From Acidimicrobiia bacterium (GTDB taxonomy: Bacteria > Actinomycetota > Acidimicrobiia > Spongiisociales > ZC4RG35), in the NCBI GenBank assembly GCA_965203555.1, contig CBDBCY010000004.1:2880001-2944000 (forward strand): 64,000 bases of DNA. Direction: 5' to 3'. Of this stretch, positions 20,972 to 37,940 are shown in pieces. The translations under genes and the position numbers were made by a program. Each line of letters begins with the position of its first letter. Position 1 is the stretch's first letter. The notes below the pieces were generated by a model that saw only the letters and a program-made list of their open reading frames with translations, had not been told where the DNA came from and did no database searches.

Positions 20972-21046
20972 ATCCCAGAGGCTACGAATTATTGACCAAT
21001 AAATCAAAGCCACTCTGTGTTTTCTGGACGCAACTAGCCTTCCGAT

Positions 21047-21475
21047 ATGGCCTACCGGACTGTCCAGAGGGTGCGTTTCTCCGACCTCGACCCCTACAAC
21101 CACGTCAACCACGCCCGGTATCTGAGCTTCTTCGAGATGGCGCGGGTGGATCTGCTGGACGAGATAGGTTTCAGCATGGAGCAGCTAGCCGCAATGGGTC
21201 TTCAGATCGTGCTGGTGGAAGCCAACATCCGTTATTACACCCCGGCGCGCCTGGGCGACGAGATCCAGATCGCCACCAGGGTCAGGGAGGTGCGCCGCGC
21301 CTCTACCCGCTGGTCACAGAGAGCACAGATGGGTTCAGAGCAGGTGGCAGCGCTGGAGATAAAAGCGGCCTTCACCAATCTTGACGGCAAACCCCAACGC
21401 ACTCCCCGAGGCTTTGCCGAGGCAACCGCGCCCTATCGAGTGGAAGACTTAAAACGCAGGCCGCTACCTGGCTGA
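21047..21475 (+). CDS. Acyl-CoA thioesterase (YbgC/4HBT family)
   Basis: VRFSDLDPYNHVNHARYLSFFE.AR hot-dog motif. Confidence 0.92.
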   Translation: MAYRTVQRVRFSDLDPYNHVNHARYLSFFEMARVDLLDEIGFSMEQLAAMGLQIVLVEANIRYYTPARLGDEIQIATRVREVRRASTRWSQRAQMGSEQVAALEIKAAFTNLDGKPQRTPRGFAEATAPYRVEDLKRRPLPG

Positions 21476-21479
21476 CAAC

Positions 21480-21973
21480 GCCAGTGAACATAAAAGACCC
21501 GGCCCAAGGAGGGCCCCCGGTTTGGACCAGACCCGGACCAAAAGCAGTCCCAGGGCCTTGTTCAACCCGCAGACATGACCCCATGTGAAAGAACGAAGAA
21601 ACGTTCCCAACGTGGAAGGGGCCATCATCCAAACGGTAACACCCTCCGGGTTGCTGCGGACCGCAGACGATCAGCATGATCGATATGGGTGCCGCCCAAC
21701 AGCATTCGACGCCACCAACGACAGCATCTTGCGGCCCGGACGTCCGCCGCCCGCTCTGCCGCCATCCGAACGGTGTCGTCCACCAACTGTTCCACACCCA
21801 ACCGGGACAAAAGACCTCCCACCAGCAACAGGTACGCATCCGCCACCAAAGACCCCTCGCTGCCAAGGGCAAACAGCCGTGTTCAGTTACTGCTGTTTTT
21901 CCAGGTCAGAGAGGCACTTCCCCTCATTTACCCGAACCACACCCACCCAAACTGCCCGATCGGTGGATTGAGG
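21480..21973 (-). pseudogene. Truncated, frameshifted IS1380-family element (one end plus 5' part of transposase)
   Basis: VADA.LLL..L..RLG.E.LVD, GGTHIDHADRLR, APSTLGTFLRSFTWGH segments across frames; terminus CCTCAATCCACCGA at 21973. Confidence 0.78.
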
Positions 21974-21974
21974 T

Positions 21975-24344
21975 TTATTGGTTTGGGGTCATGCGGTAGC
22001 CGGTCCGGTGTTCGGTGTGAATGTGGGTGGGGTTGGTGGCGTTGTCGCCCAGTTTGCGGCGGAGGCTGCTGATCACGGTTCGCATTGGTCTGAGGTCCCT
22101 GTTCTTTTGTTGGCCCCAGACTCGTTTCAGGAGTTGTTCGTAGGTTATGACGTGACCGGCATTTTGTGACAGTTCGGCCAGGAGGCGGTACTCGATGGCG
22201 GTTAGTTGGACTGGTCGGCCTGCGAGAGTGACTCGGCGGCGGGTGTAGTCGATGGTCAGGTCACCTACGTTGTACGGCTTGGCCGGTTCGTGTGTGGCTT
22301 CTTTGCGTAGGGCGGCTCTGATCCTGGCGGCTAGCTCGGTAGGTGAGAACGGTTTGACGATGTAGTCGACTGCTCCCATGTCGAAAGCCTTGGCGATTAT
22401 GTCTTCTTGGCCGTACACGGACAGGAAGATGATCGGCATGTCGGTTGTTTTGAGGATGTCTTTCATCAGGGCGATTCCGTCCGTGCCGGGGAGCATCAGG
22501 TCTAACAGGACCAGTTGCGGATGGTTTGTTTCGACCAGGTGCTGTGCTTTGGTCGGATCGCCGGTCACGATCGGTTTGTATCCCTCTTTGGTTAGTACGT
22601 TGCGCACGTACCGAAGCGCTTGGGGGTCGTCATCTACCACCAGTATTGGCTGGTCGTCTTGTGAGCGGCTGGTGGAGGAGTGGGATGGGTCGGCGGGTGT
22701 GCCGGTTGTGACCTGTTCGGCTATCGGGATCGTGAAAGTGAACCGAGTGCCCGTTCCGGGACCGTCGCTCTCGGCCCAGATGCGACCCCCGTGAGCCTCG
22801 ACGATCCCTTTGCAGATCGCCAGGCCCATGCCCGGCCCCCGCAGCAGGTTTTCGTGGTTATCGGTTCTCCAGTCGGGGAGTTTTCCGAACAGGTGAGGCA
22901 ATAGCTCGGGTGTCACGCCTTTGCCCCGGTCGGAGACGGACACCGCCACATGAAGACCGTCTCGGACCGCGGTTATCCGGATAACAGACGACTCGTCAGA
23001 AAACCGGGCGGCGTTGCCCAACAGGTTGCTGAGCACTTGAACAATGCGGCGCCTGTCCGCCATCACCATCGGCAGGCCCGGCGCCAGGTCGATACGCAAG
23101 TTGTCACCGTCCCCGCCGCTGAGGAAGGTGTTCTTTGCCTCTTCTACTATGGTGACCAAAACCTCAGGCTTGGGAGAGACTGAAAGAGTGCCGGTCTCGA
23201 CCCGTGCAAGATCCAAAAGATCACTTATCAGTTCCCGCATCCGGTCGGTCTGCGCATCGATGATCCGGTAAAACTGGACTGTCTCGGCCGGATCCAGAGA
23301 CGCCCCCAGCATGGTGGTAACAGATCCCTTGATGGACATAAGAGGCATCCTCAATTCGTGGCTCACCATCGCCAGGAACCCGGCCCGGAGCCGCTCCAAC
23401 TCCTCCACATCGGTCATATCCTGCAGCGTTACCACGAACGACTCGACCCCTCCGTCACCTGAACGGATGGGTGTGGCGTTCACCAAAACGGTGACACGCC
23501 GCCCGTCGGGAACCTGCATGACGATCTCCTCGGCCCGTACAGTCTCCCCGCCGCTCAACGTCTGCGCCAACGGCAACTCGTCGAAAGAGACTTCCCTCCC
23601 GTCCCCACGGCGAATCGTCATAACCTCCAAAAGCTGCTCCGGCGACTGACCCGGATCCCTGAGACGGTCAACGATTCTCCGGGTTTCCCGGTTAATCGAC
23701 ACCACCCCTCCCGACCGGCCGTCCAAGACCACGACCCCGACCGGCGAAGTGTTGATCAGAGTCTCCAGATCGGCCCTTGCCCGCTGCTCGTCCCTAAACG
23801 CCCGGGCGTTGGCTATCACCATCGCTGCCTGCGACGCGAACAACACCAAAGTCTCCTCGTCCTCCGACGTGAACCCCCGACCCCCCTCCTTCCGACCCAC
23901 GTAAATACCCCCCACCCGCGTCCCTTGATGAAACACCGGCGCGCCCAAAAGAGAAAAATCCGGATCGTTCCCCACCGGAGGAGGCAACCGAGGAAGACCC
24001 AAAGAACCCATATGCCCCACCAAATCCCGAATCCTCAAAGGCTCGGGAATACTCCCCAGATACTCGAAAAGTCGCATCCCATCCGGCATGTCCCACAACA
24101 ACTGCGCCTCCTCCACCGTCAAACCCGAAGAAAGAGAATCCCGCAGCCGCCCCGACCCCTCCAACAGCGTAATAACCCCATAACGAGCCCCGGTCAACGA
24201 CCGAGCAGAATCCAACACCCCCTGCAACACCGTGTCATAATCAAGACTTTCGTTGATCCGCAGACTGGCGTGCCTCAACCGCGACAAACGATCCCGAAGC
24301 GCCTCAACCTGCCCCCTCAAATCATCGACTCGCTCCACACTCAC
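21975..24344 (-). CDS. Hybrid one-protein two-component system: GAF-PAS-HisKA-HATPase-REC-OmpR winged helix
   Basis: GAF (FTSEDEE.L.LFA.QAA), PAS, VSHELR.PL, NLL.NA, G.GLAI.K.IVEAHGG, VVDDD, LLDLMLP, DYIVKPF, LT..EY.LL, LRRKL. Confidence 0.93.
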   Translation of the reverse strand: MSVERVDDLRGQVEALRDRLSRLRHASLRINESLDYDTVLQGVLDSARSLTGARYGVITLLEGSGRLRDSLSSGLTVEEAQLLWDMPDGMRLFEYLGSIPEPLRIRDLVGHMGSLGLPRLPPPVGNDPDFSLLGAPVFHQGTRVGGIYVGRKEGGRGFTSEDEETLVLFASQAAMVIANARAFRDEQRARADLETLINTSPVGVVVLDGRSGGVVSINRETRRIVDRLRDPGQSPEQLLEVMTIRRGDGREVSFDELPLAQTLSGGETVRAEEIVMQVPDGRRVTVLVNATPIRSGDGGVESFVVTLQDMTDVEELERLRAGFLAMVSHELRMPLMSIKGSVTTMLGASLDPAETVQFYRIIDAQTDRMRELISDLLDLARVETGTLSVSPKPEVLVTIVEEAKNTFLSGGDGDNLRIDLAPGLPMVMADRRRIVQVLSNLLGNAARFSDESSVIRITAVRDGLHVAVSVSDRGKGVTPELLPHLFGKLPDWRTDNHENLLRGPGMGLAICKGIVEAHGGRIWAESDGPGTGTRFTFTIPIAEQVTTGTPADPSHSSTSRSQDDQPILVVDDDPQALRYVRNVLTKEGYKPIVTGDPTKAQHLVETNHPQLVLLDLMLPGTDGIALMKDILKTTDMPIIFLSVYGQEDIIAKAFDMGAVDYIVKPFSPTELAARIRAALRKEATHEPAKPYNVGDLTIDYTRRRVTLAGRPVQLTAIEYRLLAELSQNAGHVITYEQLLKRVWGQQKNRDLRPMRTVISSLRRKLGDNATNPTHIHTEHRTGYRMTPNQ

Positions 24345-25338
24345 CTCACCTCAACACCACCGGACACGAACCAACCCGCACATCCTCACAAAAACCTGAC
24401 ACCAAACAAACCGGAATCAACACACCCCGACCGTTAACGACCCCCACTATACCAACAACCACTCCCCGCCCTCACAACAACTCACAGCATCAATCCCCCC
24501 CAGGCATCCCCGGGACGGCTCAACAGAACCAGATGGCTTCCAACATCACGCTCAAATGCTTCCTGTGATCCCAGGGGAACTTTCAGGGCGAGGGCTTACA
24601 GTCGGCCTAAACGGCGCAGAGAGAGCAGACCCCAAACGGGCGGTTGTTTCCCGGCCTTCCGCAGGCGATCCGCACGATCAGAACCGAAAGAGCCGCTCCC
24701 ACAGAGACATGCCGGTGTTGGCAGCGTCACAGTCCAGGCTTTACCTCCAGAAGTCGTGTCCGCCGTCGATCCGATCAGTCCGTCAGGCGCGGCTGACCGA
24801 CATTCATCCATCAGTATCTGCCAACAGACGCGACTACCGAACGCGGCGGGTGCACGCCGGACTGCGGCTGGTTTCAGCTGTGAATCGATGTCCTCGACGG
24901 CGAAGGGGACGGTTCCCCGCGGTTCGTTTCCACCATCCCCACGCCGATGCCGGTCAGGCGGCGGGCCCGGCAGGCGCCGCAGTTGTCGGTGTCCCCCGGC
25001 CCGACCCGGACCATCCCAGCCCGTACCAAGGGGGCGGAGCCCGCCGCAAAAGGGAACGAAAGACCCCACCCACAAACGCGCGGAGGTGCGCAGAGTATCA
25101 ATCCGGGCCGCTGCTCCTGACCCCCGCACACCCCGGTTTAGCCATGTCTCATAAGAACTCACACATTATTGCGCGAAAACCCACATCATGCTGATAAGTC
25201 CTGTTTCGGAGCCCCTTAAACCGCCACCCCTTTAGTTATGGTGATTAAACAACCGGTAGGAAGAAGCGGAATGCTGTGGGCAAGGCTTTTGGGAAAGGCT
25301 ACCCAAGACGAAACGCAGGTCTTGGTTGGACGAATCGC

Positions 25339-25351
25339 GGGGGGGGGGGGG
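25339..25351 (+). repeat. G13 homopolymer in the intergenic region upstream of the giant surface protein gene
   Basis: 13 consecutive G. Confidence 0.9.
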
Positions 25352-25753
25352 TCTTTTGGTGTGCTTCTCGGTGGTGGGGTCAGCAGGGCGCCAGGGTACA
25401 GATTGGGGACATCTTCCGAGAAGGGGCCGGCGGCAGCGGTAACAGGCGGTAAGGACACAACCGCGGACCCGCGCCTGCGGGCTGTCTTCGAACTGATCCT
25501 CCCTAAAACCAGTGACCGATCACCGACTTGTATGACCTGGCATACCGTCACCGTCGGGCATGGCATCGTGAACCCGCAGAAACAGACCACCTGCCGCATC
25601 CAGCGGATCTCTAGAAAAACTGCCGGACCCTCCAAAAACACTGTTCGACAGCAACGACAAGCCCCCCGCATCGCCAGCCATGCCGGCACCGGTCCGCAAC
25701 CGGGCCTCCGGTCAGTCACCCGGTCGCGTTCAAAGGCCAGCCGGGAAGTCCCC

Positions 25754-25787
25754 GGACCAAACCCAGCACCGGACCAAACCCAGCACC
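25754..25787 (+). repeat. 17-bp tandem direct repeat (ggaccaaacccagcacc x2)
   Basis: Two perfect adjacent copies ~90 bp upstream of the ATG at 25878. Confidence 0.9.
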
Positions 25788-25877
25788 ACTCGGGCACGAC
25801 GAAAGCACGTCGCTGTACGCGACAACGATGACCAAACAACAAACCCGCGAAAACACCAAAACCGAGAGGATCAAAAC

Positions 25878-28800
25878 ATGACAACCAGCAAACGAGTCCT
25901 TGCATTGACGATTGCGCTGTCCCTCGCTCTCGGGCTGGTGGCAGCAACGATGTCCACAACGACACCGGCAATCGCCGCCGAGGAATGCAAGATCAAAAAA
26001 ATAGGACAATGGACCATCTACACGATCAACAATGGACAGTCCTACTACGCCGTAACCGGCTCGGAAGAAGACGCGGAGCTGAGGGAACGGTGCGGCCTGC
26101 CACCCCTCACTACGACCACCACAACAACTACGGCCACCACTACGACCACGACAACCACGACCACTCTACCTCAGGACGACAATGATGATGCTGTCACGGG
26201 CGTGAATACGAACTCGATCAGGACCACTACTGATGGGACCGGGGGCGGGACAGGTGATGTGAACACCGACAGCGTCACAACTCAAACCCTCGGGACGAGC
26301 TGGGAACCTGCGGTGACTGTCGAGCCAGCGAACCCCTCTACCAAGGGCAGGTGGTCTCAGTTCAAGTTCACAATGACACCAGCACCAAGGAGGGACAGAA
26401 CTTCTGTTCTAGTGGAGGTGTATGTGCCTAGGTTCGGGCGCTACAAAACCTTTGTACCCATGAAAAGCGCCACCAAAGTGACGGGCTTTAGGGCCCAAGA
26501 TGATGATGAGTCGACAATCACGGTCAAGATCCTGGAACGCAACAACCATGACGAGTATGTGGTGGGTAGCCCCTCCTCTGCCTCCGTCACAGTGCCAGCG
26601 GCGTCCGATTATCCCACTGTGAACATTGAAAAGCATGAGACTACCCCTAGTATCGAGGAGGGAGGAGTTGCTAGGTTTCTCATAACGGCCGACAAGTCGA
26701 TACCCGCTTTCTGGGATGTGATGGTTGATGTTTCGCAGACCAACGGCCCGTTTACCACACAGTTGGGAGAACAACCCGTTGAGTTCGGCCCCGGGGACAC
26801 GAGTGTCATCTTCGAAGTGGAAACCGATCCCGACGACGTTTGCGAGGACGACGGGCAGATAATCGCTGAGCTCTCGGATAGCGTCATCTACACGGTCGGG
26901 TCCAATGATTCGGCGATCGTCCCCGTGACAGACGACGATCGTGAAAGGGCGCCAGTCTCTACAACGATCGGTGAGGGTTCTTTGACCCTGAAACCGAGGA
27001 CGTACAGTTTTGCGGGGAGGCAATGGACCAATAAGAGAGATAGGACGCTCCGTGTAGGCGGGTGGAAGCTGACGTGGGATCCCTGCCTGGATGGGGACAA
27101 CGTCCTGGAGGCCAACGTCATCAAGAACTTCACGACGAACCTCATGTCCTATTTCTTAGGGGGGACCTTTGATTGTTATACCACGATTTGCCAAGAGTTA
27201 AACCATGCTATCCGCAACGGAAACCAGTGCTTGAACGACGCCGCGGAGAGAATGGTCCGCTGGGGCCTGGAAAGGATCAGAGACGACGAGGATGTGAACA
27301 GTGGCTTTCCTGACCTGGGGGACTGCCATGTCGTAGAGTGGGATGATGACACTCCCACGTTCACGGTTTCCGCTCATCGATCTACTGTGACGGAGGGGGA
27401 TGAGGTCCGGTTCGATTTCGACTGGACCACTCCCAATGGCCAGAACCCGGAGCGTCGAACCGTCAACCTGAGGATAGTGACGGTCGGCAGCTTCCTGGAG
27501 GAAGAACCGCCGTCTACTCATGTCCTCGGAAAGAACGACGCGTTCAGCCACCGGGACAAGTACCGCACCCTGAAGCTGGAAACCGATAATGACGGCGTGG
27601 TAGAGCGCTTCGGAACCGTGCAACTCATTATTCTTCCTCCTAGCGACGATGACCACGTCTACGCTGTGGGCGAGGACAGTACTGCCATCGTCACCGTTCT
27701 CGACGATGACGAGGCCGTCACTTTCACTTCAACCACGCCTGCCCCTGTGGTCGAGGGAAATCGGCTCACGTTCTCAGTATCGGTCACCAAACACGCCAGA
27801 GATGGTATTCTGTCTGTGTCGGTTACGGAAACCGGGAACATGCTGAAACGCGATCGGGGCCATCCGCCCACCCAGGTCAACATCAGCAACGGCAACGGTA
27901 CCCTGTACGTCGACACGGTCAACGACACGCACCGGGAATGTCCTAGCACGATCAGTGTGACCAGCACCGACCCCCGCATCGGCAGTTCCAACACCGCCAG
28001 CGTGACGGTGGCCGACTACGAGAGGCCTGACAACGACGGGCCCACTGTGTCCATCATGCCCACCCGTCGCGGGTCGGCGATAACCGAAGGCCAAGACGCT
28101 TCGTTCACCATCACATCCACCGACTCGTCCAAGGCCGTGCCCGTGTTCTACCGCGTGACCCTCGGAACCAGTTGGGGTGCTCACTCCGACTGGCGGTGTG
28201 CAAGTGTCCAGGGCACCCAAACCGTATCCATCGCCACTTCGGACGATAGCGTTGACGAACCGGACGGGCCGCTGACCGTTTCACTGAGCAGCTCGCACCC
28301 ACACTACACCGTCTCTAGCAAGTCGCCGTCTGCTTCGGTGACCGTTAACGACGATGATGGGGGCGTCACCGTGGCCGCACCCAGTGCGCAGATCGGCAGC
28401 GCCGGCAATGTCATAGCGGGGGACGAGTTTGGCGTGTGGGTTGGCTTCTGCAACGAAGATGACCCGCCGAGCAGGGTCCGGGTCGAGGTAGAGCGCCCGG
28501 GTTATTCCGACAAGCACAGGTGGGTTTCTATAGACCATACCTACGATTGTTGGAACTACGGATTCTTCCATGAGAGCACCTCTTCAACCGGAACGGCCCG
28601 AATCACCGTGGTGGAAGGCGATGGCTATACCCATGGTGCCAGCACCTCTATCACCATTACGGCTGCCGGCACCTCCAGGACTACGGCTAGGCAAACCGTC
28701 TCCTACTCCACGGGCGGAGGCTCTCCCGTGACCTTCACGTCTCCGACCACCACCGTCAACGACGAAGTTCCGTCTGCTCCGCGTTCTTTGTCGGGGTCTT

Positions 28801-31800
28801 CGAATACGGCGGGTACGGCGGTGTCTTTGTCGTGGTCTGTTCCGAGCAACTACGGTACAGCGGCGATTTCCGGCTATCAGTATCGGTACAAGCTCAGCAG
28901 CGGCAGTTCGTGGACATCTTGGTCATCTCAGAGCAGTACTTCGGTGACGATTAGTGGTCTGTCGCCAGGTACTTCTTACGATTTTGAGGTGAGAGCCAGT
29001 AACAGCGCGGGAGACGGAGAGGCCGCGTCGACCACGGTCGCCACTGCTGTTGCGGCTTTGCCGGTGTTGTCGGTTTCTCGGTATCAGTCGGGTGTGACCG
29101 AGGGCGGCACTGCTTATTTCCGGGTGACCTCGGACAAGGTGGTTCCCTCTAGCATTTCGGTGGGTTTTTCCCGGTCACAGCAGGGGTCGTTCGCTAGTTG
29201 GAGCGGCAGCGGAACGGTCACTATTAGCAGTGGTAACACCCGGTCGGGGTGGATCAGCGTGTCCACTGTTGATGACAGCACGGACGAACCGAACGGTTCG
29301 CTTACCTTGACCTTGAACAGTGGTACCGGTTATACGGTGGGGTCGCCGTCGTCTGTTTCGGTGACTGTCAACGACGACGATGTTGCGGTGTTGCCGGTGT
29401 TGTCGGTTTCTCGGTATCAGTCGGGTGTGACCGAGGGCGGCACTGCTTATTTCCGGGTGACGTCGGATAGGTCTGTGCCTTCTAGCATTTCGGTGGGTTT
29501 TTCCCGGTCGCAGAGTGGGTCGTTCGCGAGTTGGAGCGGTAGCGGAACGGTCACTATTAGTAGCGGTAACACTCGATCGGGTTGGATAGCGGTGACCACC
29601 CAAAACGACAGCGTGGACGAACCGAACGGTTCGCTTACCTTGACCTTGAACAGTGGTACCGGTTACACGGTGGGGTCGCCGTCGTCTGTTTCGGTGACTG
29701 TCAACGACGACGATGTTGCGGTGTTGCCGGTGTTGTCGGTTTCTCGGTATCAGTCGAGTGTGACCGAGGGCAGCACCGCCTATTTCCGGGTGACCTCGGA
29801 CAAGGTGGTTCCCTCCAGCATTTCGGTGGGTTTTTCCCGGTCACAGCAGGGGTCGTTCGCTAGTTGGAGCGGCAGCGGAACGGTCACTATTAGCAGTGGT
29901 AACACCCGGTCGGGGTGGATCAGCGTGTCCACTGTCAACGACAGCACGGACGAACCGAACGGTTCGCTTACCTTGACCTTGAACAGTGGTACCGGTTACA
30001 CGGTGGGGTCGCCGTCGTCTGTTTCGGTGACTGTCAACGACGACGATGTTGCGGTGTTGCCGGTGTTGTCGGTTTCTCGGTATCAGTCGAGTGTGACCGA
30101 GGGCAGCACCGCCTATTTCCGGGTGACCTCGGACAAGGTGGTTCCCTCCAGCATTTCGGTGGGTTTTTCCCGGTCACAGCAGGGGTCGTTCGCTAGTTGG
30201 AGCGGCAGCGGAACGGTCACTATTAGCAGTGGTAACACCCGGTCGGGGTGGATCAGCGTGTCCACTGTCAACGACAGCACGGACGAACCGAACGGTTCGC
30301 TTACCTTGACCTTGAACAGTGGTACCGGTTATACGGTGGGGTCGCCGTCGTCTGTTTCGGTGACTGTCAACGACGACGATGTTGCGGTGTTGCCGGTGTT
30401 GTCGGTTTCTCGGTATCAGTCGGGTGTGACCGAGGGCGGCACTGCTTATTTCCGGGTGACGTCGGATAGGTCTGTGCCTTCTAGCATTTCGGTGGGTTTT
30501 TCCCGGTCGCAGAGTGGGTCGTTCGCGAGTTGGAGCGGTAGCGGAACGGTCACTATTAGTAGCGGTAACACTCGATCGGGTTGGATAGCGGTGACCACCC
30601 AAAACGACAGCGTGGACGAGCCGGATGGTTCGCTTACCTTGACCTTGAACAGTGGTACCGGTTATACGGTGGGGTCGCCGTCGTCTGCCTCCATCACCGT
30701 CAGGGACAATGATGAGGCGCCCGTGACCTGCTCGTCTGGTCAGGCCAAAAAGAATGGCGTCTGTGGTTACCCGGTGCTGACCCTCGGTAGGGAGACATCT
30801 GGTGTCACTGAGGGCGAGCGAGTTCGGTTCAAGATTTACTCGGATCGCCCGGTCACCAGGTCAACCAATGTGAAGGTCTTTCGCCAGGAGAGGGGCAATT
30901 TCGGCATCTCGACGGGCACTTCCTCTGTCGGGATTTCAGCGGGTGATGGACCGTGGTCCTTCTCCTACAGCACCACCGACGACTCCACCGATGAGTCGGA
31001 TGGATCGGTGCAGGCGTCCCTGCGTTATGGTTCCTACTACACGCCTGGCTCCCCATCGTCGGCTAGCGTGGCGATACGGGACAACGATGATCCACCTGCT
31101 GTGATCTCGACGGTCAGCATCAGTGGTGGTAGGGCCGTTACTGAGGGAGAGAATGTGGTATTCACCCTCACCGCTACCCCGAGACCAACGGAGGCGATAT
31201 CGGTCAGGGTGCATATCGCGGACCCCTACAGCGATGATCCGGGGATAACCATTTTCCTCACCGACTACAGCGAAAGGACCGTGCGCATTGGCACCAGCGG
31301 TAGGGCCACACTTTCCCTCGCCACCGATGACGATCAAGAGGACGAGAGGGACGATGATGTCGTAGCCACCATCAAGCCGTCGGCGTCAGAGTATCGCATT
31401 GGCACCGCCTCAGCCTCAGTTCGGGTGAGGGACAACGATGTGGCGGATACCTGCGCCTACGGTCAGACGAAGAAAAACGGTTCCTGCGGTTACCCGATAT
31501 TGACTGTCGAGAGGGTCTCATCGAGTGTTACCGAAGGCCAGGCTGCCCAATTCAGGATCCGCTCTGATCGGCGTGTGCCAAATTCCATCTCCGTCAATTA
31601 CCAACGCTCGGTGAGTGGTAGCTTCGGCATCTCCGCACGCAACTCCGCTGCTGGGAGTTTCCGGGGCAATGGCCCATGGGTGTTCAGCCTGAGTACTAGT
31701 AATGACAGTGTTGACGAACCTGATGGCTCGGTGACGGTGAGCTTGCGGAGTGGCCCCAGATATAGGGTTGGCAACCAATCATCGGCGACGGTGACCATTC

Positions 31801-32606
31801 GGGACAACGATGCGCCCGTCTCCACCGCCTGTCCCACTGGTCAGACGAGGAAAAACAGTGTCTGCGGCTATCCGGTGCTGACGATTGTTAAGGTGTCGTC
31901 GAGTATCACCGAGGGTCAGACCGCCAACTTCAACATCCGATCGGATCGCCGTGTTCCGGCCTCCCTCAGGGTGCAGCTCTACCGCTCGACGAGCGCTGGT
32001 TTCGGCACCTCTGGTTCGTTCTCGCTGGGGATCTCCTCGGGTACCGGGCCATGGGCCTTCGGTTACCTGACCGTAGGTGATTCGGTGGACGAGGCAAATG
32101 GCTCGGTCAACATGACCTTGAGGTCGGGAACCCGGTACTCGGTGGGTTCACCCTGGTCGGCGAGAGTGGTCATATACGACGACGATTCGGCCGCGACCGG
32201 TGACGACGATGACGACGATGACGACGGTAACGATGAGGACGACGGTGGTAGTCGCTCCGGTGGCGGTAATGATGACGACGATGACGAGGATGCTGCCGAC
32301 CTCCTGCCTAGCGCCAGGGCCGGCAACCGGAATAGCGGCAGTATCACCGCAGGGTCGCAGTTGTCCTTCTGGGTCGGCTTCTACAAGTGGGAGAACCCTC
32401 CGACCAGCATCAGGGTCAAGGTAGAGCGCCCAGGCTATACCACCAAGTACAGGTGGATCTCCCTGAACAGGACCTCGGGGCACTGGAGGTACGGCAACTT
32501 CACGGAGAACACCCTTTCATCGAGGACGGGGACGGCTCGCATCACTGTTGTATCAACCAGTAGCTATCACGGCGGGGCCACCAGTACCGTCCGCATAACC
32601 AACTAA
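25878..32606 (+). CDS. Giant (~2240 aa) secreted surface protein with many Calx-beta-like/Ig-like repeats and one fibronectin type III domain
   Basis: Signal peptide (..PAIA), poly-Thr linker, repeated VTEG....F.V...T.DD..DE.DG...V.L....Y.VG..SSA.VTV.DDD units, FN3 (PSAPRSL...LSW...ISGYQYRY...GLSPGTSYDFEVRASN), poly-Asp linker; RBS gagagga. Confidence 0.9.
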   Translation: MTTSKRVLALTIALSLALGLVAATMSTTTPAIAAEECKIKKIGQWTIYTINNGQSYYAVTGSEEDAELRERCGLPPLTTTTTTTTATTTTTTTTTTLPQDDNDDAVTGVNTNSIRTTTDGTGGGTGDVNTDSVTTQTLGTSWEPAVTVEPANPSTKGRWSQFKFTMTPAPRRDRTSVLVEVYVPRFGRYKTFVPMKSATKVTGFRAQDDDESTITVKILERNNHDEYVVGSPSSASVTVPAASDYPTVNIEKHETTPSIEEGGVARFLITADKSIPAFWDVMVDVSQTNGPFTTQLGEQPVEFGPGDTSVIFEVETDPDDVCEDDGQIIAELSDSVIYTVGSNDSAIVPVTDDDRERAPVSTTIGEGSLTLKPRTYSFAGRQWTNKRDRTLRVGGWKLTWDPCLDGDNVLEANVIKNFTTNLMSYFLGGTFDCYTTICQELNHAIRNGNQCLNDAAERMVRWGLERIRDDEDVNSGFPDLGDCHVVEWDDDTPTFTVSAHRSTVTEGDEVRFDFDWTTPNGQNPERRTVNLRIVTVGSFLEEEPPSTHVLGKNDAFSHRDKYRTLKLETDNDGVVERFGTVQLIILPPSDDDHVYAVGEDSTAIVTVLDDDEAVTFTSTTPAPVVEGNRLTFSVSVTKHARDGILSVSVTETGNMLKRDRGHPPTQVNISNGNGTLYVDTVNDTHRECPSTISVTSTDPRIGSSNTASVTVADYERPDNDGPTVSIMPTRRGSAITEGQDASFTITSTDSSKAVPVFYRVTLGTSWGAHSDWRCASVQGTQTVSIATSDDSVDEPDGPLTVSLSSSHPHYTVSSKSPSASVTVNDDDGGVTVAAPSAQIGSAGNVIAGDEFGVWVGFCNEDDPPSRVRVEVERPGYSDKHRWVSIDHTYDCWNYGFFHESTSSTGTARITVVEGDGYTHGASTSITITAAGTSRTTARQTVSYSTGGGSPVTFTSPTTTVNDEVPSAPRSLSGSSNTAGTAVSLSWSVPSNYGTAAISGYQYRYKLSSGSSWTSWSSQSSTSVTISGLSPGTSYDFEVRASNSAGDGEAASTTVATAVAALPVLSVSRYQSGVTEGGTAYFRVTSDKVVPSSISVGFSRSQQGSFASWSGSGTVTISSGNTRSGWISVSTVDDSTDEPNGSLTLTLNSGTGYTVGSPSSVSVTVNDDDVAVLPVLSVSRYQSGVTEGGTAYFRVTSDRSVPSSISVGFSRSQSGSFASWSGSGTVTISSGNTRSGWIAVTTQNDSVDEPNGSLTLTLNSGTGYTVGSPSSVSVTVNDDDVAVLPVLSVSRYQSSVTEGSTAYFRVTSDKVVPSSISVGFSRSQQGSFASWSGSGTVTISSGNTRSGWISVSTVNDSTDEPNGSLTLTLNSGTGYTVGSPSSVSVTVNDDDVAVLPVLSVSRYQSSVTEGSTAYFRVTSDKVVPSSISVGFSRSQQGSFASWSGSGTVTISSGNTRSGWISVSTVNDSTDEPNGSLTLTLNSGTGYTVGSPSSVSVTVNDDDVAVLPVLSVSRYQSGVTEGGTAYFRVTSDRSVPSSISVGFSRSQSGSFASWSGSGTVTISSGNTRSGWIAVTTQNDSVDEPDGSLTLTLNSGTGYTVGSPSSASITVRDNDEAPVTCSSGQAKKNGVCGYPVLTLGRETSGVTEGERVRFKIYSDRPVTRSTNVKVFRQERGNFGISTGTSSVGISAGDGPWSFSYSTTDDSTDESDGSVQASLRYGSYYTPGSPSSASVAIRDNDDPPAVISTVSISGGRAVTEGENVVFTLTATPRPTEAISVRVHIADPYSDDPGITIFLTDYSERTVRIGTSGRATLSLATDDDQEDERDDDVVATIKPSASEYRIGTASASVRVRDNDVADTCAYGQTKKNGSCGYPILTVERVSSSVTEGQAAQFRIRSDRRVPNSISVNYQRSVSGSFGISARNSAAGSFRGNGPWVFSLSTSNDSVDEPDGSVTVSLRSGPRYRVGNQSSATVTIRDNDAPVSTACPTGQTRKNSVCGYPVLTIVKVSSSITEGQTANFNIRSDRRVPASLRVQLYRSTSAGFGTSGSFSLGISSGTGPWAFGYLTVGDSVDEANGSVNMTLRSGTRYSVGSPWSARVVIYDDDSAATGDDDDDDDDGNDEDDGGSRSGGGNDDDDDEDAADLLPSARAGNRNSGSITAGSQLSFWVGFYKWENPPTSIRVKVERPGYTTKYRWISLNRTSGHWRYGNFTENTLSSRTGTARITVVSTSSYHGGATSTVRITN
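29049..30713 (+). repeat. Five near-identical 333-bp (111-aa) tandem repeats inside the surface protein gene
   Basis: Units start at 29049, 29382, 29715, 30048, 30381; variant pattern A-B-A-A-B. Confidence 0.95.
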
Positions 32607-32988
32607 GTCTGTGAAACCCTGACTCCCCTGCAGTCCTCTTTCTTGCGGGGGAGTCCCCTTCCCTCCCAAAAGTCCGAAGAAAAACCTGGGAAATCCGCCC
32701 TTCGCTGGGCTGACCCTGGGCATATTTGATGACGACCATCGAAATTCCACTCAATACGGCCCTGCGCGTTTTTTTGGGATTGGTGGTCTGGCTGGTGGGT
32801 GGTGGGGTTCATGTTAGGAGGAGTGCTCGGGCGGCGTAGTTGTGGGGGTTGGTGAAGCCGTGGGCGGTGCGTCGGAGGGTTTGATGCTCCTATGTTTGTC
32901 AAATTGGGGTTTGGGGGGTGGTGTGATGACGATCATCGAAAGTCCCCAGAGTCGATCATCGAAATTCCCCACCCTGGGTTGGGTGGTT

Positions 32989-33771
32989 TTAGGCTAGCAG
33001 GTCTCCTTTCGGTCGGTGTTTTCGGGCTTGGGCTTGGTAGCTTCTGAGGCGGTAGCTGTCGCCGGTGATGGTGAACACCACGCTTTTGTGGAGCAGTCGG
33101 TCGAGCATGGCGGCGGCGATGGTGTGGTCGGAGAAGATCTCTCCCCACGAGGCGACACCGAGGTTGGTGGTGAGAATGATCGACCCTTTTCCGTACCGTC
33201 TGGAGATGACCTGGAACAGGGTGGCGGCGTCTTCTGCCGGCATGGGCAGATAGCCCAGTTCGTCGATGATCAACACTTTGGGGGTGTTGAAGAACCGCAA
33301 CGTTTGGGCCCATCTTCCTTGTAGGGCGGCTTTGCGGCACCGCGCCGCCAGGTCGGCTGCGGTGGTGTAGTACACCTTGTGTCCGGTGTCTACCGCGGCG
33401 CGGCCCAGGATGACCGCCAGCATGGTTTTGCCCACGCCGGGTGGTCCGATGAACAAAACGTTGGTGGCGTCGGTCAGGTAGGCGCCGGTGGCGAGTTCTC
33501 GTACCATTTTCTCGTCGATGCTGGGTTGGGCGGTGAAGTCGAAGTCTTCCAGTTTCCAGCGGGTGGGGAAGTTGGCCAGTTTGAGACGGGTTTCCCATCG
33601 CCGCTGTTCGGTGGTCTCTACTTCTACTCGAAGTAGACCTTCAAGGAACTCGGTGTGGCTTTCACGGTTGGTTCGTGCCTGTTCGAGGTGGGTGGGGAGC
33701 GCCTCGGCCGCGGCGGGTAGGTTGAGGTAGGCCAGATGGCCTCGTAGTTGTTGGTACACCGATTGGTTCAT
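32989..33771 (-). CDS. istB: IS21 helper ATPase IstB
   Basis: GPPGVGKT Walker A, LIIDELGY Walker B, TTN, AMLDRLLH, GDSYR. Confidence 0.96.
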   Translation of the reverse strand: MNQSVYQQLRGHLAYLNLPAAAEALPTHLEQARTNRESHTEFLEGLLRVEVETTEQRRWETRLKLANFPTRWKLEDFDFTAQPSIDEKMVRELATGAYLTDATNVLFIGPPGVGKTMLAVILGRAAVDTGHKVYYTTAADLAARCRKAALQGRWAQTLRFFNTPKVLIIDELGYLPMPAEDAATLFQVISRRYGKGSIILTTNLGVASWGEIFSDHTIAAAMLDRLLHKSVVFTITGDSYRLRSYQAQARKHRPKGDLLA

Positions 33772-35069
33772 CACAGACCCGCTTTTCGGTTTTGTTGGTC
33801 GATGTGCCGCTGGTACACCTCCAGATCGATCACCGTTTCTGTGTACAGGTCTCCGATACCGGCGGCGATAGCCAAAGCCGCGTCCGATGGCGGACGGTTG
33901 GGTTTGGGTTTGCACGGTGGTTTGGTGGTGAACTCGGCCAGGACCACGTTCTCCAAAGCAGCGGTGTGCTCGGGTAGCCGAACCACCCGTCCCATACCGC
34001 GGGGTGCCTGCTGGTGGGTAGCGACCAGCCGGCCACTGGCCGAGAACATGCTGATGGTGGGGTCACCGAGCCTCCAACGGACGGTGACCTGGGTTCCTAT
34101 CACCCCTGGTGGCACCGAGTATCGGTTACCGCGTACCGATACCAGCCCGTTGGATGTCACCCTGCGCTCCAGGATCCCTTCTGCCGGGTAAGGCACCGCA
34201 GGAAGCTCGAGGAGAGGCTCGTTATCGGCCAGCTCGCCCACCGTGCTCTCCCGCCGTGGGCGAAGATCGCCCACGGTCTGGCAGAAGCTGTCCAGGCTGT
34301 GCTGTGCTTCGGCGATGCTGGTCACCGCTGCGGTGCGCCACCACCGCTGAGAGACATAGTGGATGGCCTTTTCCACCACGCCTTTCCGTTGGGGACGGCG
34401 CGGTGGGCACGGATCGACAGCCACCCCGTAGTGTTTGGCTACCCCAACGAACGACGGCTGGATACGACCACTGGCCGCCACCACGGTAGCCATCCGATCC
34501 ACCCTCCACCGCCGCGGGGTACCCTCCAGTCGTCTCAACACCTGGTCGAGACCCTCCACCAAATGGGGTTGGTCCTGGCGGGACGTGATCCACGCCCGAA
34601 ACCGGCCCGAGTGCGACAGCACTCCCACCAGCACATGAGCGGTGGCTCCCCACGGGGCGTCACGTAGTTCCACCCAGTCCCACTGGCACTCCTCACCCGG
34701 TGGATGATCAATAATCGCCGTGGCCCGGCCCCTGGTACCCGCACAGGCGCCACACAACGGCCGCAGGCCCCGAAGACGGACCTTCCGCACAAACGTCACA
34801 TAGCTCTGCTCATAGCCCAAAGCCACCACCTCGTCGAACAGCGCCGACCCCCACACATGCGGATCATCAGACAACCGCTGCCGCACATACGCCTCGAACT
34901 CATCAAACAGATCCGTCTCTGCCCGGGCACGCTCGCCCGGGGCTCGCCCGTCCGACAGATACGCCCGTATCGTTTTCCGGTCTCTTCCCAAATGACGAGC
35001 AATAGCCGAGATCGACCACCCCCGCCTCCTCAAAGCATGAACTTCCACGCACTCCTCCAGTACCAACAT
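33771..35069 (-). CDS. istA: IS21 transposase IstA
   Basis: N-terminal HTH (GWSISAIARHLGRDRKTIR), PGEECQWDW, VDRM, KGVVEK, RYSVP. Confidence 0.95.
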   Translation of the reverse strand: MLVLEECVEVHALRRRGWSISAIARHLGRDRKTIRAYLSDGRAPGERARAETDLFDEFEAYVRQRLSDDPHVWGSALFDEVVALGYEQSYVTFVRKVRLRGLRPLCGACAGTRGRATAIIDHPPGEECQWDWVELRDAPWGATAHVLVGVLSHSGRFRAWITSRQDQPHLVEGLDQVLRRLEGTPRRWRVDRMATVVAASGRIQPSFVGVAKHYGVAVDPCPPRRPQRKGVVEKAIHYVSQRWWRTAAVTSIAEAQHSLDSFCQTVGDLRPRRESTVGELADNEPLLELPAVPYPAEGILERRVTSNGLVSVRGNRYSVPPGVIGTQVTVRWRLGDPTISMFSASGRLVATHQQAPRGMGRVVRLPEHTAALENVVLAEFTTKPPCKPKPNRPPSDAALAIAAGIGDLYTETVIDLEVYQRHIDQQNRKAGL

Positions 35070-35210
35070 AAGGGGATAGGGCTCCTCTCCACAGCTAGTG
35101 ACATGACAATCGCCTAGCTTGGAGAGAGCCCTACCCAACAACGGGTATTTGCTCCCAGAGGGTGGGGAATTTCAGTGATCGAGACTGGGGAATTTCAGTG
35201 ATCGCCAACA

Positions 35211-36404
35211 GGTGAGCCAGTGTTGGTATTGGGTGGCGAGTTGGTGGTTGTGGTAGAGGCCTCGTTCGAGTTGTGAGAGGCGGTTTGGGTGGGTTTGGAG
35301 GGCTATGGCGGCGCGAGCCAGAGTTGTTTGGGTTTTTTGGCGTAGGCAGCGTAGATCGCTGCCGTTGGGTGTTTGGTTCGGGTTGGTCAGCAGTCGGTAG
35401 ACCTGGCGGGCGATGTAGCGTTTCAGGCAGCGGATGATCTCTTTGCGGGTTTTGCCTTCGGCTTGTCGCCGTTGGGCGTATTCGATGGTGCGGGGGTCGG
35501 TGCGTAGCCGTACTGTGGCTATACGCCAGAGGGCGTTGTTGGCTTGGCGGTCGCCGCCGCGGTTGAGTCGGTGACGCACTATGCGTCCCGACGACGCTTG
35601 GACGGGGCTTGCGCCGCAGAGAGCGGCGAAAGACGCTTCTGTGCGCATGCGGTGGGGGTTGTCCCCGGCGGTGACCAGCAGCGCGGCGGCGGTTTCGGGG
35701 CCGATCCCACCGGCAGCCAGCAGCGCCGGGTTGGCCCGGGCGCAGAGCTGTTTGATTTCGGTGTCGAGTTGTTGGATCTCCCAGGTAAGTGCTTGGTATC
35801 GGCGGGCCAACAGACGCAACGCTTTCTTGGCATAGGCGATATTGGTCCGGTTCGCGCCGGGACGATAGGCGGCGCAGACCTTCACCCGGGCTTTCGGGGA
35901 AAGGCTCCCGAGTTGGTGTTTGACCTGGTCGGGAGCGGTGACCACCAGAGCGTGCAGCTGGTTGATGGTCTGGGTGCGGGCCTTGGCGGCCGAACGGCGG
36001 ACCACCCGAAGCATCCTGATCGCTTCGACTGGTCCGTCGCCGCTTTTGGGTGTCCCGGTGGCCTGTCCGCTCAAAACAGCCCGGGCCGCGGCCTGAGCGT
36101 CGGTGGCGTCGGTCTTGCCGAACCGGCGGCGCAGTTGACGGTTGGGACGGTTCACTTCCACTACCTCGACACCGATTCTCACCAGGTAGCGGGTCAGGCC
36201 GGCGCCGTAGCTGCCGGTGCCCTCTATTCCGACCTGGGCAACGTTGCCGTGTGACCCCAGCCAGTTGCCCAGTTGTTCATAACCGGCTGTGTCGGTTCCG
36301 AACGATGCCGTGCCCAACACCCGACCGGTGGTATCCACCACCGCCGCCACATGAACATCGCGGTGGGTGTCCACCCCACCGAACACATCAACCCGATCTG
36401 ACAT
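35211..36404 (-). CDS. IS110 DEDD recombinase with C-terminal XRE-like HTH; last codons (TPQTPI-stop, 32899-32919) split off by IS21
   Basis: GVDTH, GIEGTGSYG, GKTD..DA, QASSG, HRLNRGGDRQAN, RCLKRY; tail DLR.LRQ....TL...A..L......LSQLERG. Confidence 0.93.
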
Positions 36405-36409
36405 TCGTC

Positions 36410-36620
36410 TCTTCTCCTCATTTAGAATCGGTTCTGTTCTCCCTGACCCGAAAAGGCGGTGGACGGACCACTCAAGTGGCAAGAGCAAGGCTCCTATCAG
36501 GTCACAGCCGCCCTGTCGGGAGAGCGCCGCCCCCAGGCCGGAAGCAGGCCGACAAATCAAACCAAAGGCACAAACAGGCCAGGTTAGGTTGGAGTCAGAC
36601 CCGCCCCGGCCCAGGGGCAC
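36410..36620 (-). ncRNA. Predicted IS110 bridge RNA (target- and donor-binding loops)
   Basis: Non-coding left end with two stem-closed loops holding CAACCTAA+GGTTTG (target) and ATAGGAGC+TGAGTG (donor) guide-like segments; transcript limits approximate. Confidence 0.8.
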
Positions 36621-36635
36621 CTATAAGTATGAGTG

Positions 36636-37755
36636 GATGAGGTTGTTGATGCCTTCCAGGGATCCGTTCGAACGGCGGGCGTGGTGCCAGTTGAGGATTT
36701 CTTTTGACCAGTTGAGGACGGTGGTGACGGTGTGGTAGTACTCGGGTATGTGTCCGGTTTCGTACAGGGTGACGAACCGTTCGAGGGCATCGAGCGCGGT
36801 GGGGAGGTCTTTGGCCTCATAGAGGCCGTAGAGTTGTTGGAGAGCGCACCGAGGCGACCCGCAGACGCGGGTACGCCTCGAATAGGTGTCGGAGACGTTT
36901 TTTCTCTTCGGGGGTGATATTGGCCTTTCTTTTGAGGAGCAGGTACCGGGCGCGGAACAGATCCGGATGCCAGGCGGGTTTGACGCCGGGCGACTGGCGG
37001 CGTTGCAGATCCCGGCGTACCAGGGTCAGTCCTTCGGTGAACCAGCGGGCGGCGTGGAACCGGTCCAGGACATGACAGGCCGAAGGAAGGTAGCGGACGA
37101 TGGCCGCCTGGTAGGAACGGGAACCGTCGGAGACCACGACCTGTACGTTCTGGCGCCAGCGGGGTCCCTGCTCGATGAAGAACCTGCTCAACGCCTGTTT
37201 GGACCGCCCAGGGAACATGGACAGGATCTCGCCGGTGTCGCCGTTGACAACAACGGTTACATAGCGGTGGCGTTTTCGGATCGATGTTTCGTCGATCAGC
37301 AGCACCCGGCACCTTTGGCGACGGCGCCGGGTTCGGATCAAATGGGACCAGTCGGTGACCAGACCCATGATCAGATGCCAACTGATCTGGTGGCGGCGGG
37401 CCACTGCCCGGATGGGCATGGCCTGGGCGTCCTGGACCAGCCGGCGGGCCAGCCGGCGCGTTATACCACCCACAAACTGGGGATGGGTTTCCATGTGCCG
37501 CCTCTCGCACCGGTCGCACACGTACCGTCGCTGCGTCCACAACAACACCGTCAAACGTCCGCTCACTTCCAGGTCGCGGATTCGCCGCTGGCGGCGGTCG
37601 TGCACCCGCCGGCACGACCGGCCACAATGCGGACACTCCGACAGCTTCTTCACCGAGACCACCTCCACCACCAGCTCCCCGACGGTGTCAACCACCACCT
37701 TCGTCACCCGCACACCACGCAGGTGCAACCGGACCGGCATAACATCAGCATTCAT
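36636..37755 (-). pseudogene. ISL3 transposase, frameshifted near 36850 and interrupted by IS110; C-terminus at 32809-32881
   Basis: CPHCG..C zinc finger, IRDL, LIDETS, VVSD, LDRFH, then ALQQLY...SNGSLEGINNLI in another frame. Confidence 0.92.
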
Positions 37756-37940
37756 TGAGGCCTCCTGGATAGGCGATTCGCTTACACCACCTATTCCAGC
37801 GAGGCCTCAACCCCTAACCAAGGACCCCCTCCCTAACCCTGCTCCCCACAAATACGCGCAGCCTCCTCAATACTGAAGGGTGCGCGGGTAGGGAGATCGT
37901 GATTGTCGCCCTCCAGCATCTTTACCCAGGCAGGAGAAGA

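Follow-up and report, generated by a model that had tools for sequence, protein, structure and literature searches.

The stretch of DNA considered here, which we call the window, comprises 64,000 nucleotides of an Acidimicrobiia bacterium (assembly GCA_965203555.1, contig CBDBCY010000004.1, positions 2,880,001 to 2,944,000 of the forward strand). Plain coordinates refer to the window, while those preceded by a contig label such as C4 refer to the genome at large. Our subject is a polar gradient of nucleotide composition that runs across four units of the window, namely a histidine kinase unit and three nested insertion sequences (ISs). In each of them the + strand is rich in G and T at the left end and rich in C and A at the right end. 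The units were mapped from the listing of open reading frames (ORFs), from Pfam scans and from a blastn comparison of 21001-38500 with the organism's own genome.

The three insertion sequences lie within 32757-37866, all on the - strand and nested in the order ISL3 > IS110 > IS21. This order follows from genome copies that lack the inner elements. ISL3 alone is found at C4:2167435-2168791, where its left 127 bases (32757..32883 in the window) are joined to its main part (36634..37866). At C4:1150450-1153272 the segments 32757-32923 and 35211-37870 are contiguous, giving ISL3 and IS110 without IS21. In the window the IS110 insertion separates the left 127 bases of ISL3 from the remainder, and the IS21 insertion likewise splits IS110 into a left part of 40 bases (32884..32923) and a main part (35211..36633).

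Family membership of the three elements is supported by their domains and by their copies. IS21 (32924..35210) encodes istA (33771-35141; rve and Mu-transpos_C_2) and istB (32989-33915; IstB_IS21, E 3e-77), both on the - strand, and the genome holds eight full copies of 2287 bases that are 94-100% identical. The transposase ORF of IS110, also a multi-copy element, occupies 35172-36620; its 3' end has been changed by the IS21 insertion, and it contains both DEDD_Tnp_IS110 (N-terminal) and Transposase_20 (C-terminal). The transposase ORF of ISL3 (36817-37755) has DDE_Tnp_ISL3, Zn_ribbon_ISL3 and HTH_Tnp_ISL3. It is truncated in the window, where the DDE domain stops at profile position 148 of 240 because of the IS110 insertion, and an intact copy (L001) has the full domain. 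ISL3 copies elsewhere in the genome are 88-99.9% identical.

The fourth unit (21960..24555, - strand) consists of a gene for a hybrid histidine kinase/response regulator (21975-24344, 789 amino acids) and about 210 upstream bases. Pfam scans of the gene give GAF, PAS, HisKA, HATPase_c, Response_reg and Trans_reg_C, with no recognisable mobile element. The unit is single-copy, its best paralogues reaching just 67% DNA identity.

Keto skew (G+T-A-C) was taken in 300-base bins of the + strand. Across the kinase unit (21901-24600) the successive values are +0.23, +0.26, +0.22, -0.04, -0.07, -0.16, -0.29, -0.37 and -0.45. Across IS21 (32701-35100) they are +0.32, +0.20, +0.21, +0.19, +0.05, -0.01, -0.21 and -0.25, across IS110 (35101-36600) +0.32, +0.27, +0.17, +0.05 and -0.18, and across ISL3 (36601-37800) +0.21, +0.10, +0.04 and -0.24. 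The four units pass from about +0.3 to -0.25/-0.45, with an abrupt jump back at every boundary, and AT skew and GC skew move in parallel along the window profile. In IS21 a single gradient covers istA and istB and crosses zero near the centre of the element. Upstream of the kinase gene (24345-24520) the skew of the + strand reaches -0.55 to -0.75, and over about 190 bases 5' of the start codon the coding strand is nearly without C and A.

These values are far from ordinary for this genome, in which the standard deviation of 300-base keto skew is 0.10. We compared the skew of the first third of each unit minus that of its last third with the same difference in all genome windows of equal length. 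The kinase unit gives 0.66 (z 7.0), which is matched by 0 of 68,139 windows and is the strongest gradient in the genome. The corresponding values are 0.39 for IS21 (z 4.0), 0.48 for IS110 (z 4.4) and 0.48 for the right part of ISL3 (z 4.4).

A preliminary description, made from the letters alone, had reported G/T-rich left edges and C/A-rich right edges for the three insertion sequences, together with a reset of the pattern at each element boundary. Every edge interval that it named has the composition it gave, and two of its left-edge labels were exchanged (the order is IS21, IS110, ISL3). The jumps between bins bear out the reset. Its ascription of the gradient to every mobile unit was too wide a formula, since the kinase gene and other non-mobile accessory genes carry it as well.

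The gradient can be followed through the whole genome. Our gene calls are the longest ORFs scored by codon log-odds; they amount to 2761 genes covering 84% of the genome and are crude (istA, for example, was lost through overlap). For each gene we define D as the keto skew of the first third minus that of the last third in the coding direction, a quantity whose sign is unchanged on the other strand, and D3 as its equivalent at third codon positions. D3 was scored for the 1979 genes of at least 600 bases. Its median is +0.04 and its tails are very unequal: 169 genes lie above +0.3 and 20 below -0.3, the counts at 0.4 are 84 and 1, and those at 0.5 are 51 and 0. The 84 top genes represent 75 distinct sequences, copies of one element not being independent. 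Along the gene, taken in ten deciles, third-position skew falls evenly from +0.30 to -0.47 in these 84 genes and goes from +0.03 to -0.05 in the other 1895. Because the top set was chosen by D3, the evidence lies in the lopsided tails and the evenness of the slope, not in the slope itself. The preliminary description was right on two further points here, that the pattern reads the same, from 5' to 3', on both strands and that housekeeping genes do not share it.

The gradient is found mostly at silent sites; it is strongest at codon position 3, weaker at position 1 and hardly present at position 2. It begins about 100-150 bases before start codons and extends 50-100 bases beyond stop codons. 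Its amplitude is equal over 0.9 kb in short genes and over 2.4 kb in long genes, meaning that the gradient stretches with the unit. For the kinase gene D is 0.60 and D3 is 1.14.

Pfam scans of 60 of the 75 distinct top sequences give an idea of what the carriers are. Transposases of at least seven kinds are present (IS21, IS110, ISL3, DDE_3/IS630, DDE_Tnp_1 types, Mutator/IS256 and DDE_Tnp_1_4), along with twelve or more DUF222-HNH endonuclease genes and five or six SLH-domain surface proteins. Restriction functions are represented by two HsdM and an HsdR, and there are also SNF2/PLD helicases, a C5 methylase, two Fic proteins and three kinase paralogues. Near the threshold there are also a few ordinary genes.

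The gradient goes with small units that have multiplied recently, and genes with very similar copies are graded most often in the comparison of multicopy with single-copy genes that the preliminary description had proposed. Where the closest paralogue has 90% identity or more, the median D3 is +0.32 and 42% of genes exceed 0.4; at 70-90% identity the figures are +0.14 and 15%, at 35-50% they are +0.02 and 0%, and for genes with no paralogue +0.03 and 2%. Copy number alone can nevertheless be rejected as the cause, given the low median of the old 35-50% paralogue families and the flatness of block duplicates. On contig C3 (20.7 kb) about ten genes are duplicated as one block with 97-99.9% identity, and their D3 ranges from -0.20 to +0.23. 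As a side observation, the second copy of C3 could be a plasmid- or phage-like element that is both free and integrated, or an assembly duplicate.

Other general causes were considered. Low GC or foreign composition is rejected, the Spearman correlation of D3 with GC content at third codon positions (GC3) being -0.04, and among the genes of the genome D3 shows no relation to gene length or replicon. Mutation linked to transcription or replication in general is not the cause: other genes are near 0 at third positions, and the chromosome-wide replication keto skew is about +/-0.05 with two switches. An orientation-free scan of thirds over all genome windows has symmetric tails, because a sawtooth declines gradually and climbs back at once. 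Repeat-induced point mutation (RIP) of fungi turns C into T on both strands, lowers GC and destroys genes. It resembles the present case in that repeats are the main carriers of a mutational signature. It differs in that here GC3 is kept at 0.67-0.75, reading frames are open, the block duplicates on C3 are untouched and the bias is polar. RIP-like mutagenesis of repeats is therefore rejected, and the suggestion in the preliminary description of a host mechanism that mutates repeats is disfavoured on the same grounds.

The encoded protein does not dictate the gradient either. All 14 of 14 near-full-length homologues of the kinase (54-61% identity; from Dehalococcoidia, Acidobacteriota and other metagenome-assembled genomes, MAGs) are flat, and three actinomycete homologues (25-28% identity) have no 5'-to-3' gradient. 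Within the genus the kinase family occurs in 6 of the 12 congeners searched, with 1-4 copies each; 10 of 16 copies have a D3 of at least 0.30 (up to 1.14 and 1.02) and 5 are flat. Since the homologues are flat and the copies in the genus are mixed, the gradient is a property of particular gene copies and not of the protein family, and protein composition is rejected as its cause. At a threshold of E 1e-100, a search of 8 other genera of the order gave no member of the family. With regard to its history, the family looks accessory and horizontally moving, being patchy in the genus and having its nearest outside relatives in MAGs of Dehalococcoidia and Acidobacteriota.

The insertion sequences tell of inheritance more uniformly. 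All eight IS21 copies of the genome, which fall into two subfamilies 6% apart, are graded, as are 12 IS21 copies of 75-100% identity from 7 genomes. IS110 copies at 99.9%, 87% and 72% identity are all graded, and so are 12 of 12 scored IS110 homologues from congeners. The resets at the nested junctions can then be understood: each element carried its own gradient before it inserted.

Skews of comparable intensity have been described under the name GRINS (Nivina et al. 2021, PMC8256042). The main text of that paper defines them as stretches longer than 500 bases that have a second copy at over 80% DNA identity in the same genome or cluster and whose mean absolute GC and TA skews are above 0.15. 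The two skews are correlated and strongest at third positions, and amino-acid use is shifted, with Gly, Val, Cys and Trp set against Pro, Thr, His and Gln. According to the same text, GRINS are found in five phyla, transposases are their commonest carriers in four of the five, and 15% of the actinobacterial ones are endonucleases. The authors leave the mechanism open, offering tautomer-driven error-prone replication and gene conversion as ideas, and do not explain how both skew signs come to lie on one strand (PMC8256042).

We applied this definition with 150-base windows at a step of 30, and with blastn in place of the authors' bowtie2 pipeline for duplication. Mean absolute GC and TA skews are 0.17 and 0.19 in IS21, 0.18 and 0.24 in IS110, 0.25 and 0.25 in the kinase unit and 0.19 and 0.14 in the right part of ISL3, against 0.09-0.13 in controls. 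The Pearson correlation between GC and TA skew is +0.86 in IS21, +0.68 in IS110, +0.68 in ISL3 and +0.90 in the kinase unit; in three long control stretches it is +0.04 to +0.24. The three insertion sequences are duplicated in the sense of the definition, and the kinase unit, at 67%, is not. IS21 and IS110 are GRINS by the published thresholds, ISL3 is borderline with its TA skew just under, and the kinase unit has the skews without the duplication. The graded genes also show the third-position emphasis and the shift of amino acids, the ratios of 5' to 3' use being 1.42 for Val, 1.22 for Gly, 0.77 for Pro, 0.73 for Thr, 0.57 for His and 0.81 for Gln. Trp (0.85) and Cys (0.62) depart from the GRINS pattern.

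The likeness to GRINS thus lies in intense, positively correlated GC and TA skews of duplicated DNA longer than 500 bases, with both signs on one strand. In contrast to GRINS as described, the sign here is fixed, the change is approximately linear over the whole mobile unit and scales with its length, and it starts anew at nested insertion junctions; moreover, the strongest carrier is not duplicated. A word search of the main text of the GRINS paper (PMC8256042) finds neither "gradient" nor "polarity" nor "orientation", and a fixed polarity, a unit-long gradient that scales with length and a reset at nested junctions appear to be undescribed in that main text. Full-text literature searches found such skews only in the GRINS paper and in papers citing it, and none of the titles and abstract openings that they retrieved deals with polarity in transposable elements. 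The later papers that mention GRINS concern, in the text retrieved, polyketide synthases. That the polar gradient of this window is real, significant, inherited and of GRINS type is a statement that we make with high confidence.

The kind of substitution involved can be seen at two-fold degenerate codons, where silent changes can only be transitions. In the top genes T/(T+C) is 0.43 in the 5' third, 0.28 in the middle third and 0.16 in the 3' third, all other genes having 0.28-0.32. G/(G+A) goes from 0.73 through 0.67 to 0.45, against 0.69-0.71 in all other genes. At four-fold sites the frequencies of C, T, G and A are 0.28, 0.20, 0.43 and 0.10 in the 5' third and 0.49, 0.09, 0.26 and 0.16 in the 3' third. 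This signature fits net C>T and A>G changes that fall on the sense strand towards the 5' end of a gene and on its antisense strand towards the 3' end. The preliminary description had proposed a mutational process with these same changes, acting by deamination of transiently single-stranded 5' portions. Its bias at the level of nucleic acid, with the signature expected, is seen in the two-fold codons; the single-stranded deamination is plausible, and is something that we, too, only infer.

How far does the polarity rule reach? In a sample of 150 genomes of the phylum, 26 IS110 genes were scored; D3 exceeds 0.4 in 8 of them and is below -0.3 in none. DUF222-HNH genes give 7 of 29 scored above 0.3 (6 of them above 0.4) and again 0 below -0.3. 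Two host families, f48 and f21, are positive for both kinds of gene and a third, f16, is flat for both, part of f16 and some flat cases coming from genomes flagged unpublished (G048, G149, G078, G176, G112, G021). In other families of the same order 3 of 4 IS110 homologues are moderately graded and 1 of 4 is flat. In distant bacteria the amplitude is lower. IS110 genes of named plasmids from six actinomycetes and five Proteobacteria are weak, with D of +0.01 to +0.17 and D3 of -0.10 to +0.32, and the D3 range of these eleven homologues rejects the gradient as a property of the IS110 family itself. Nine named IS630 genes, with alpha-, beta- and gamma-Proteobacteria among their hosts, all agree in sign (D +0.10 to +0.30, D3 +0.08 to +0.55); for the named-plasmid IS110 and IS630 genes together, D is above 0 in 20 of 20. 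In random 400 kb samples of other genomes, genes above +0.3 and below -0.3 number 12 and 3 in the congener G004, 4 and 10 in G099, and 16 and 3 in G041. The top genes of G041 are ordinary enzymes and regulators, and its excess looks like a small general shift rather than a heavy tail. That the rule (5' G+T to 3' C+A on either strand, approximately linear over the whole unit) holds for mobile genes of GRINS type, and recurs more weakly in the transposases of distant bacteria, is a possibility towards which we would not yet lean.

What process might leave such a trace? The sign rule needs one that has a 5'-to-3' polarity and starts from both ends of the unit. Fixed sign, scaling with length and a transition signature together narrow the causes to two-ended polar processes of this sort. 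Resection from breaks outside the unit, which leaves 3' tails exposed, would by geometry be expected to give the opposite sign. Strands that are displaced or newly made from the ends inwards would, if exposed or made with errors, give the sign that is seen. We tentatively suggest that the gradient has built up from a transition bias that is polar and specific to one strand, with net C>T and A>G on whichever strand has the nearer 5' end, and that this bias would arise when DNA synthesis starts at the two ends of a unit and copies it towards the middle. Candidate copying events are repair of the gap that excision leaves in the donor site, the homing of endonuclease genes, copy-out replication and the spread of insertions between chromosome copies. 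In such events the displaced or newly made strand would be single-stranded longest at its 5' end, and this exposed end may deaminate (C to U, A to hypoxanthine) or may be made with G.T mispairs that stay uncorrected. If the point at which the two syntheses meet is variable, the net bias would be linear and would change sign near the middle for any length of unit. Resident copies that no longer move would drift back slowly.

Parts of this suggestion have familiar precedents. The donor sites of cut-and-paste transposons are refilled from both ends by synthesis-dependent strand annealing, and single-stranded DNA deaminates far faster than duplex. Inward copying is favoured because gap-repaired insertion sequences and homing endonuclease genes spread in this way. 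Vertebrate mitochondrial and adenovirus genomes have gradients tied to single-stranded time. The likeness to strand-displacement replication is that C>T and A>G rise with exposure, and that initiation at two ends gives a reverse-complement-symmetric gradient with a change of sign in the middle. Those systems, however, are whole replicons with a known mode of replication, whereas here we deal with chromosomal genes and IS elements. The replication strand skew of bacterial chromosomes, in which the leading strand is G+T-rich and which is usually explained by deamination of the strand that is single-stranded longer, shares with our units the excess of G over C and of T over A. It differs from them in scale: against about +/-0.05 for replication in this genome, the local units reach +/-0.3 to 0.75, switch every 1-3 kb and are independent of the direction of replication.

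A number of observations weigh against copying from both ends as the explanation, and we set them out together. The carriers differ in transposition chemistry across families, and the genes for the kinase, HsdM/HsdR and SLH proteins carry the gradient without a known copying cycle. The unit itself is not cleanly defined. In a type I restriction operon (C4:1952848-1959618) hsdM and hsdR are each graded separately, with a flat hsdS between them, and in another two-gene operon the gradient does not restart. Five IS elements of E. coli K-12 have no gradient (D is +0.06 for IS1, +0.10 for IS30, +0.11 for IS5, -0.06 for IS2 and -0.20 for IS3, with a background standard deviation of 0.09-0.105), which also rejects the gradient as a property of all IS elements. 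At four-fold sites the shift between G and C exceeds what A>G can supply, so C/G transversions or indirect flows must contribute. Finally, another genome of the phylum has a modular polyketide synthase cluster of very large size (G084:C1:7955001-8085000), in which blocks of about 1.2 kb recur some 5 kb apart and reach a coding-strand keto skew of +0.63. These textbook GRINS blocks are one-signed and G+T-rich on the coding strand (44 windows against 3 in genes on the + strand, 0 against 12 in genes on the - strand), whereas the mobile units of our genome show a bipolar gradient. Two-ended copying does not predict one-signed blocks and is weakened by them.

To the same list belong most of the substitutions that can be polarised between copies, for which the preliminary description had expected a dependence on the distance from the ends. 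Four diverged families of this genome yield 552 private (singleton) substitutions, which have no polar bias. Of those in the 5' third, 58 go towards G/T and 76 towards A/C, with equal rates per site (p = 0.93). In the 3' third 90 go towards G/T and 45 towards A/C, which is erosion of the gradient, and resident copies accordingly drift back to baseline. The expectation was borne out in one place. Along four IS21 branches that each lead to several copies, polarised by outgroups, 19 changes in the 5' third go towards G/T and 10 towards A/C; just 249 of 662 sites there are A/C, and the excess towards G/T has p = 0.003, in counts that are small and with one outgroup copy that looks recombinant. Even on these branches the 3' third (12 towards G/T, 6 towards A/C) leans, without significance, towards erosion. 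For IS110 a 72%-identical outgroup leaves too few changes, and too much saturation, for a reading. The results as a whole are best read as an old gradient maintained in propagating lineages and not one that stationary copies are building.

We therefore hold end-primed inward copying as a conjecture that is more doubtful than not, and to the whole statement, an inherited gradient of GRINS type together with this origin for it, we would give somewhat less than an even chance. Several other explanations can be put forward. One of them is biased gene conversion, in which heteroduplex formed from an invading 3' end is repaired asymmetrically. In one variant, a NucS-type enzyme, which cuts G.T, G.G and T.T mismatches and not A.C, could let A/C alleles survive on the invading 3' part, so that 3' parts become C+A-rich on both strands. 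A domain search of this 95%-complete genome found NucS_C and no MutS_V, and the association of the gradient with multi-copy sequences of high identity speaks for conversion too. A congener has one IS21 copy (L306, at G003:C1:3241099-3243385) whose identity is 93.2% with subfamily B and 91.1% with subfamily A of our genome and just 95.4% with its own genome-mate, which suggests recombination or transfer between IS21 lineages. The GRINS authors themselves link the skews to gene conversion in their main text (PMC8256042). Yet the strongest gradients are held by single-copy genes and by the kinase with its distant paralogues, the nearly identical block duplicates are flat, and the geometry of invasion relative to the unit ends has to be assumed. 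In Proteobacteria, which use MutS/MutL, the IS630 homologues have that sign too, with a smaller amplitude. We consider gene conversion unlikely to be the main cause.

Two-way transcription is another candidate. Sense transcripts from the 5' end and antisense transcripts from the 3' end, both fading with distance, would leave the non-template strand to deaminate, with R-loops on poorly translated foreign genes adding to the exposure. The signature is what single-strand deamination should give, the gradient reaches beyond start and stop codons by about as much as a transcript does, and polyketide synthase GRINS are G+T-rich specifically on the coding strand. A single RNA run gave short contigs, mostly less than 95% alike, over conserved parts of the kinase. 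Against transcription, ordinary genes, many of them surely more transcribed than transposase genes, are near 0 and ungraded, every carrier would have to have an antisense promoter at its 3' end, and resident copies have no continuing polar bias. We regard this explanation, too, as improbable.

It is also conceivable that selection acts on the nucleic acid and that the gradient serves the element, for instance by promoting recombination between copies, as has been proposed for GRINS, or by insulation through Rho. Rho and the nucleotide bias of bacterial genes are the topic of PMC13323073. A transcript that crosses the element in either direction would become C-rich and G-poor in its distal half, and Rho might stop it there and so insulate the element. 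Purifying selection in active copies would explain why IS21 and IS110 lineages of 72-100% identity, and different species, keep the gradient while resident copies drift away from it. A linear gradient as long as the unit, altering amino acids along the way, would however be a costly terminator or recombination site. Unrelated classes of genes share it, and kinase copies within one genus thrive with it or without it. Selection seems to us quite improbable.

An artefact of assembly or polishing, or mere chance, can be dismissed as barely credible: consensus errors do concentrate in repeats, but the strongest unit is single-copy, the tails of D3 at 0.4 are almost wholly of one sign, the gradient is present in homologues from more than 10 separately assembled genomes (of 1 to 290 contigs), and contigs from public runs of two other studies contain the kinase unit with 1-2% differences, which excludes a consensus error.

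If the copying explanation is correct, these skews are a record of mobile DNA being copied from both ends inwards with one strand exposed, and the origin of GRINS becomes a testable question. Composition at silent sites would then be a mark, readable from sequence, of units that have long been propagated by repair synthesis, and mobile and defence genes would owe directional changes of amino acids to the same process. As presented in 2021, GRINS were widespread and able to recode proteins, without a mechanism and with the coexisting signs on one strand unexplained (main text of PMC8256042). The window offers an unusually clean case, in which three nested elements each keep their own gradient and a single-copy gene has the strongest one in the genome. 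Should the copying explanation fail, the window would still document a known phenomenon, with good controls, in one more actinobacterial lineage.

A few neighbouring features may be added. To the left of the kinase unit, 21516..21959 is a fragment from the end of another IS, 85.6% identical over 344 bases to C4:2489409-2489754 and C4:1114939-1115284; the former adjoins a DDE_Tnp_1_4 transposase gene according to a Pfam scan. The fragment is C+A-rich on the + strand, with a sharp switch at 21959/21960. Keto skew in 40-base bins towards its end is -0.45, -0.45, +0.25 and -0.60, and is +0.60 from 21960. Three further studies have metagenome runs, labelled as sponge, coral and marine, that contain close variants of 21500-25200 (31-49% of sampled words).

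Between the kinase unit and the nested elements lies an adhesin-like gene of 2308 amino acids (25680-32606, + strand; Pfam Calx-beta and fn3). It breaks the polarity rule, having a C+A-rich start and G+T-rich tandem repeats. A repeated segment that covers its 5' end (25147..26158), 86% identical to C4:1163653-1164659, has strong correlated skews and no gradient from G+T to A+C (mean absolute GC skew 0.19, TA skew 0.30, r +0.82). Its tandem repeats of 333 bases (29048..30714, + strand), about five in number and recognised by self-matches at 333-base offsets with 87-96% identity, are G+T-rich throughout and pass the GRINS skew thresholds without a gradient (GC 0.16, TA 0.22, r +0.63). A related repeat array is found at C4:1491157-1493565.

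The nested cluster is followed by a citrate synthase gene (37941-39053). Among named protein clusters the nearest to this genome are actinobacterial, on weak evidence. On the chromosome C4, keto and GC skew change sign near 0.35-0.4 Mb and near 2.0 Mb, which are the likely origin and terminus of replication, and the window sits on the arm whose + strand is G+T-rich.

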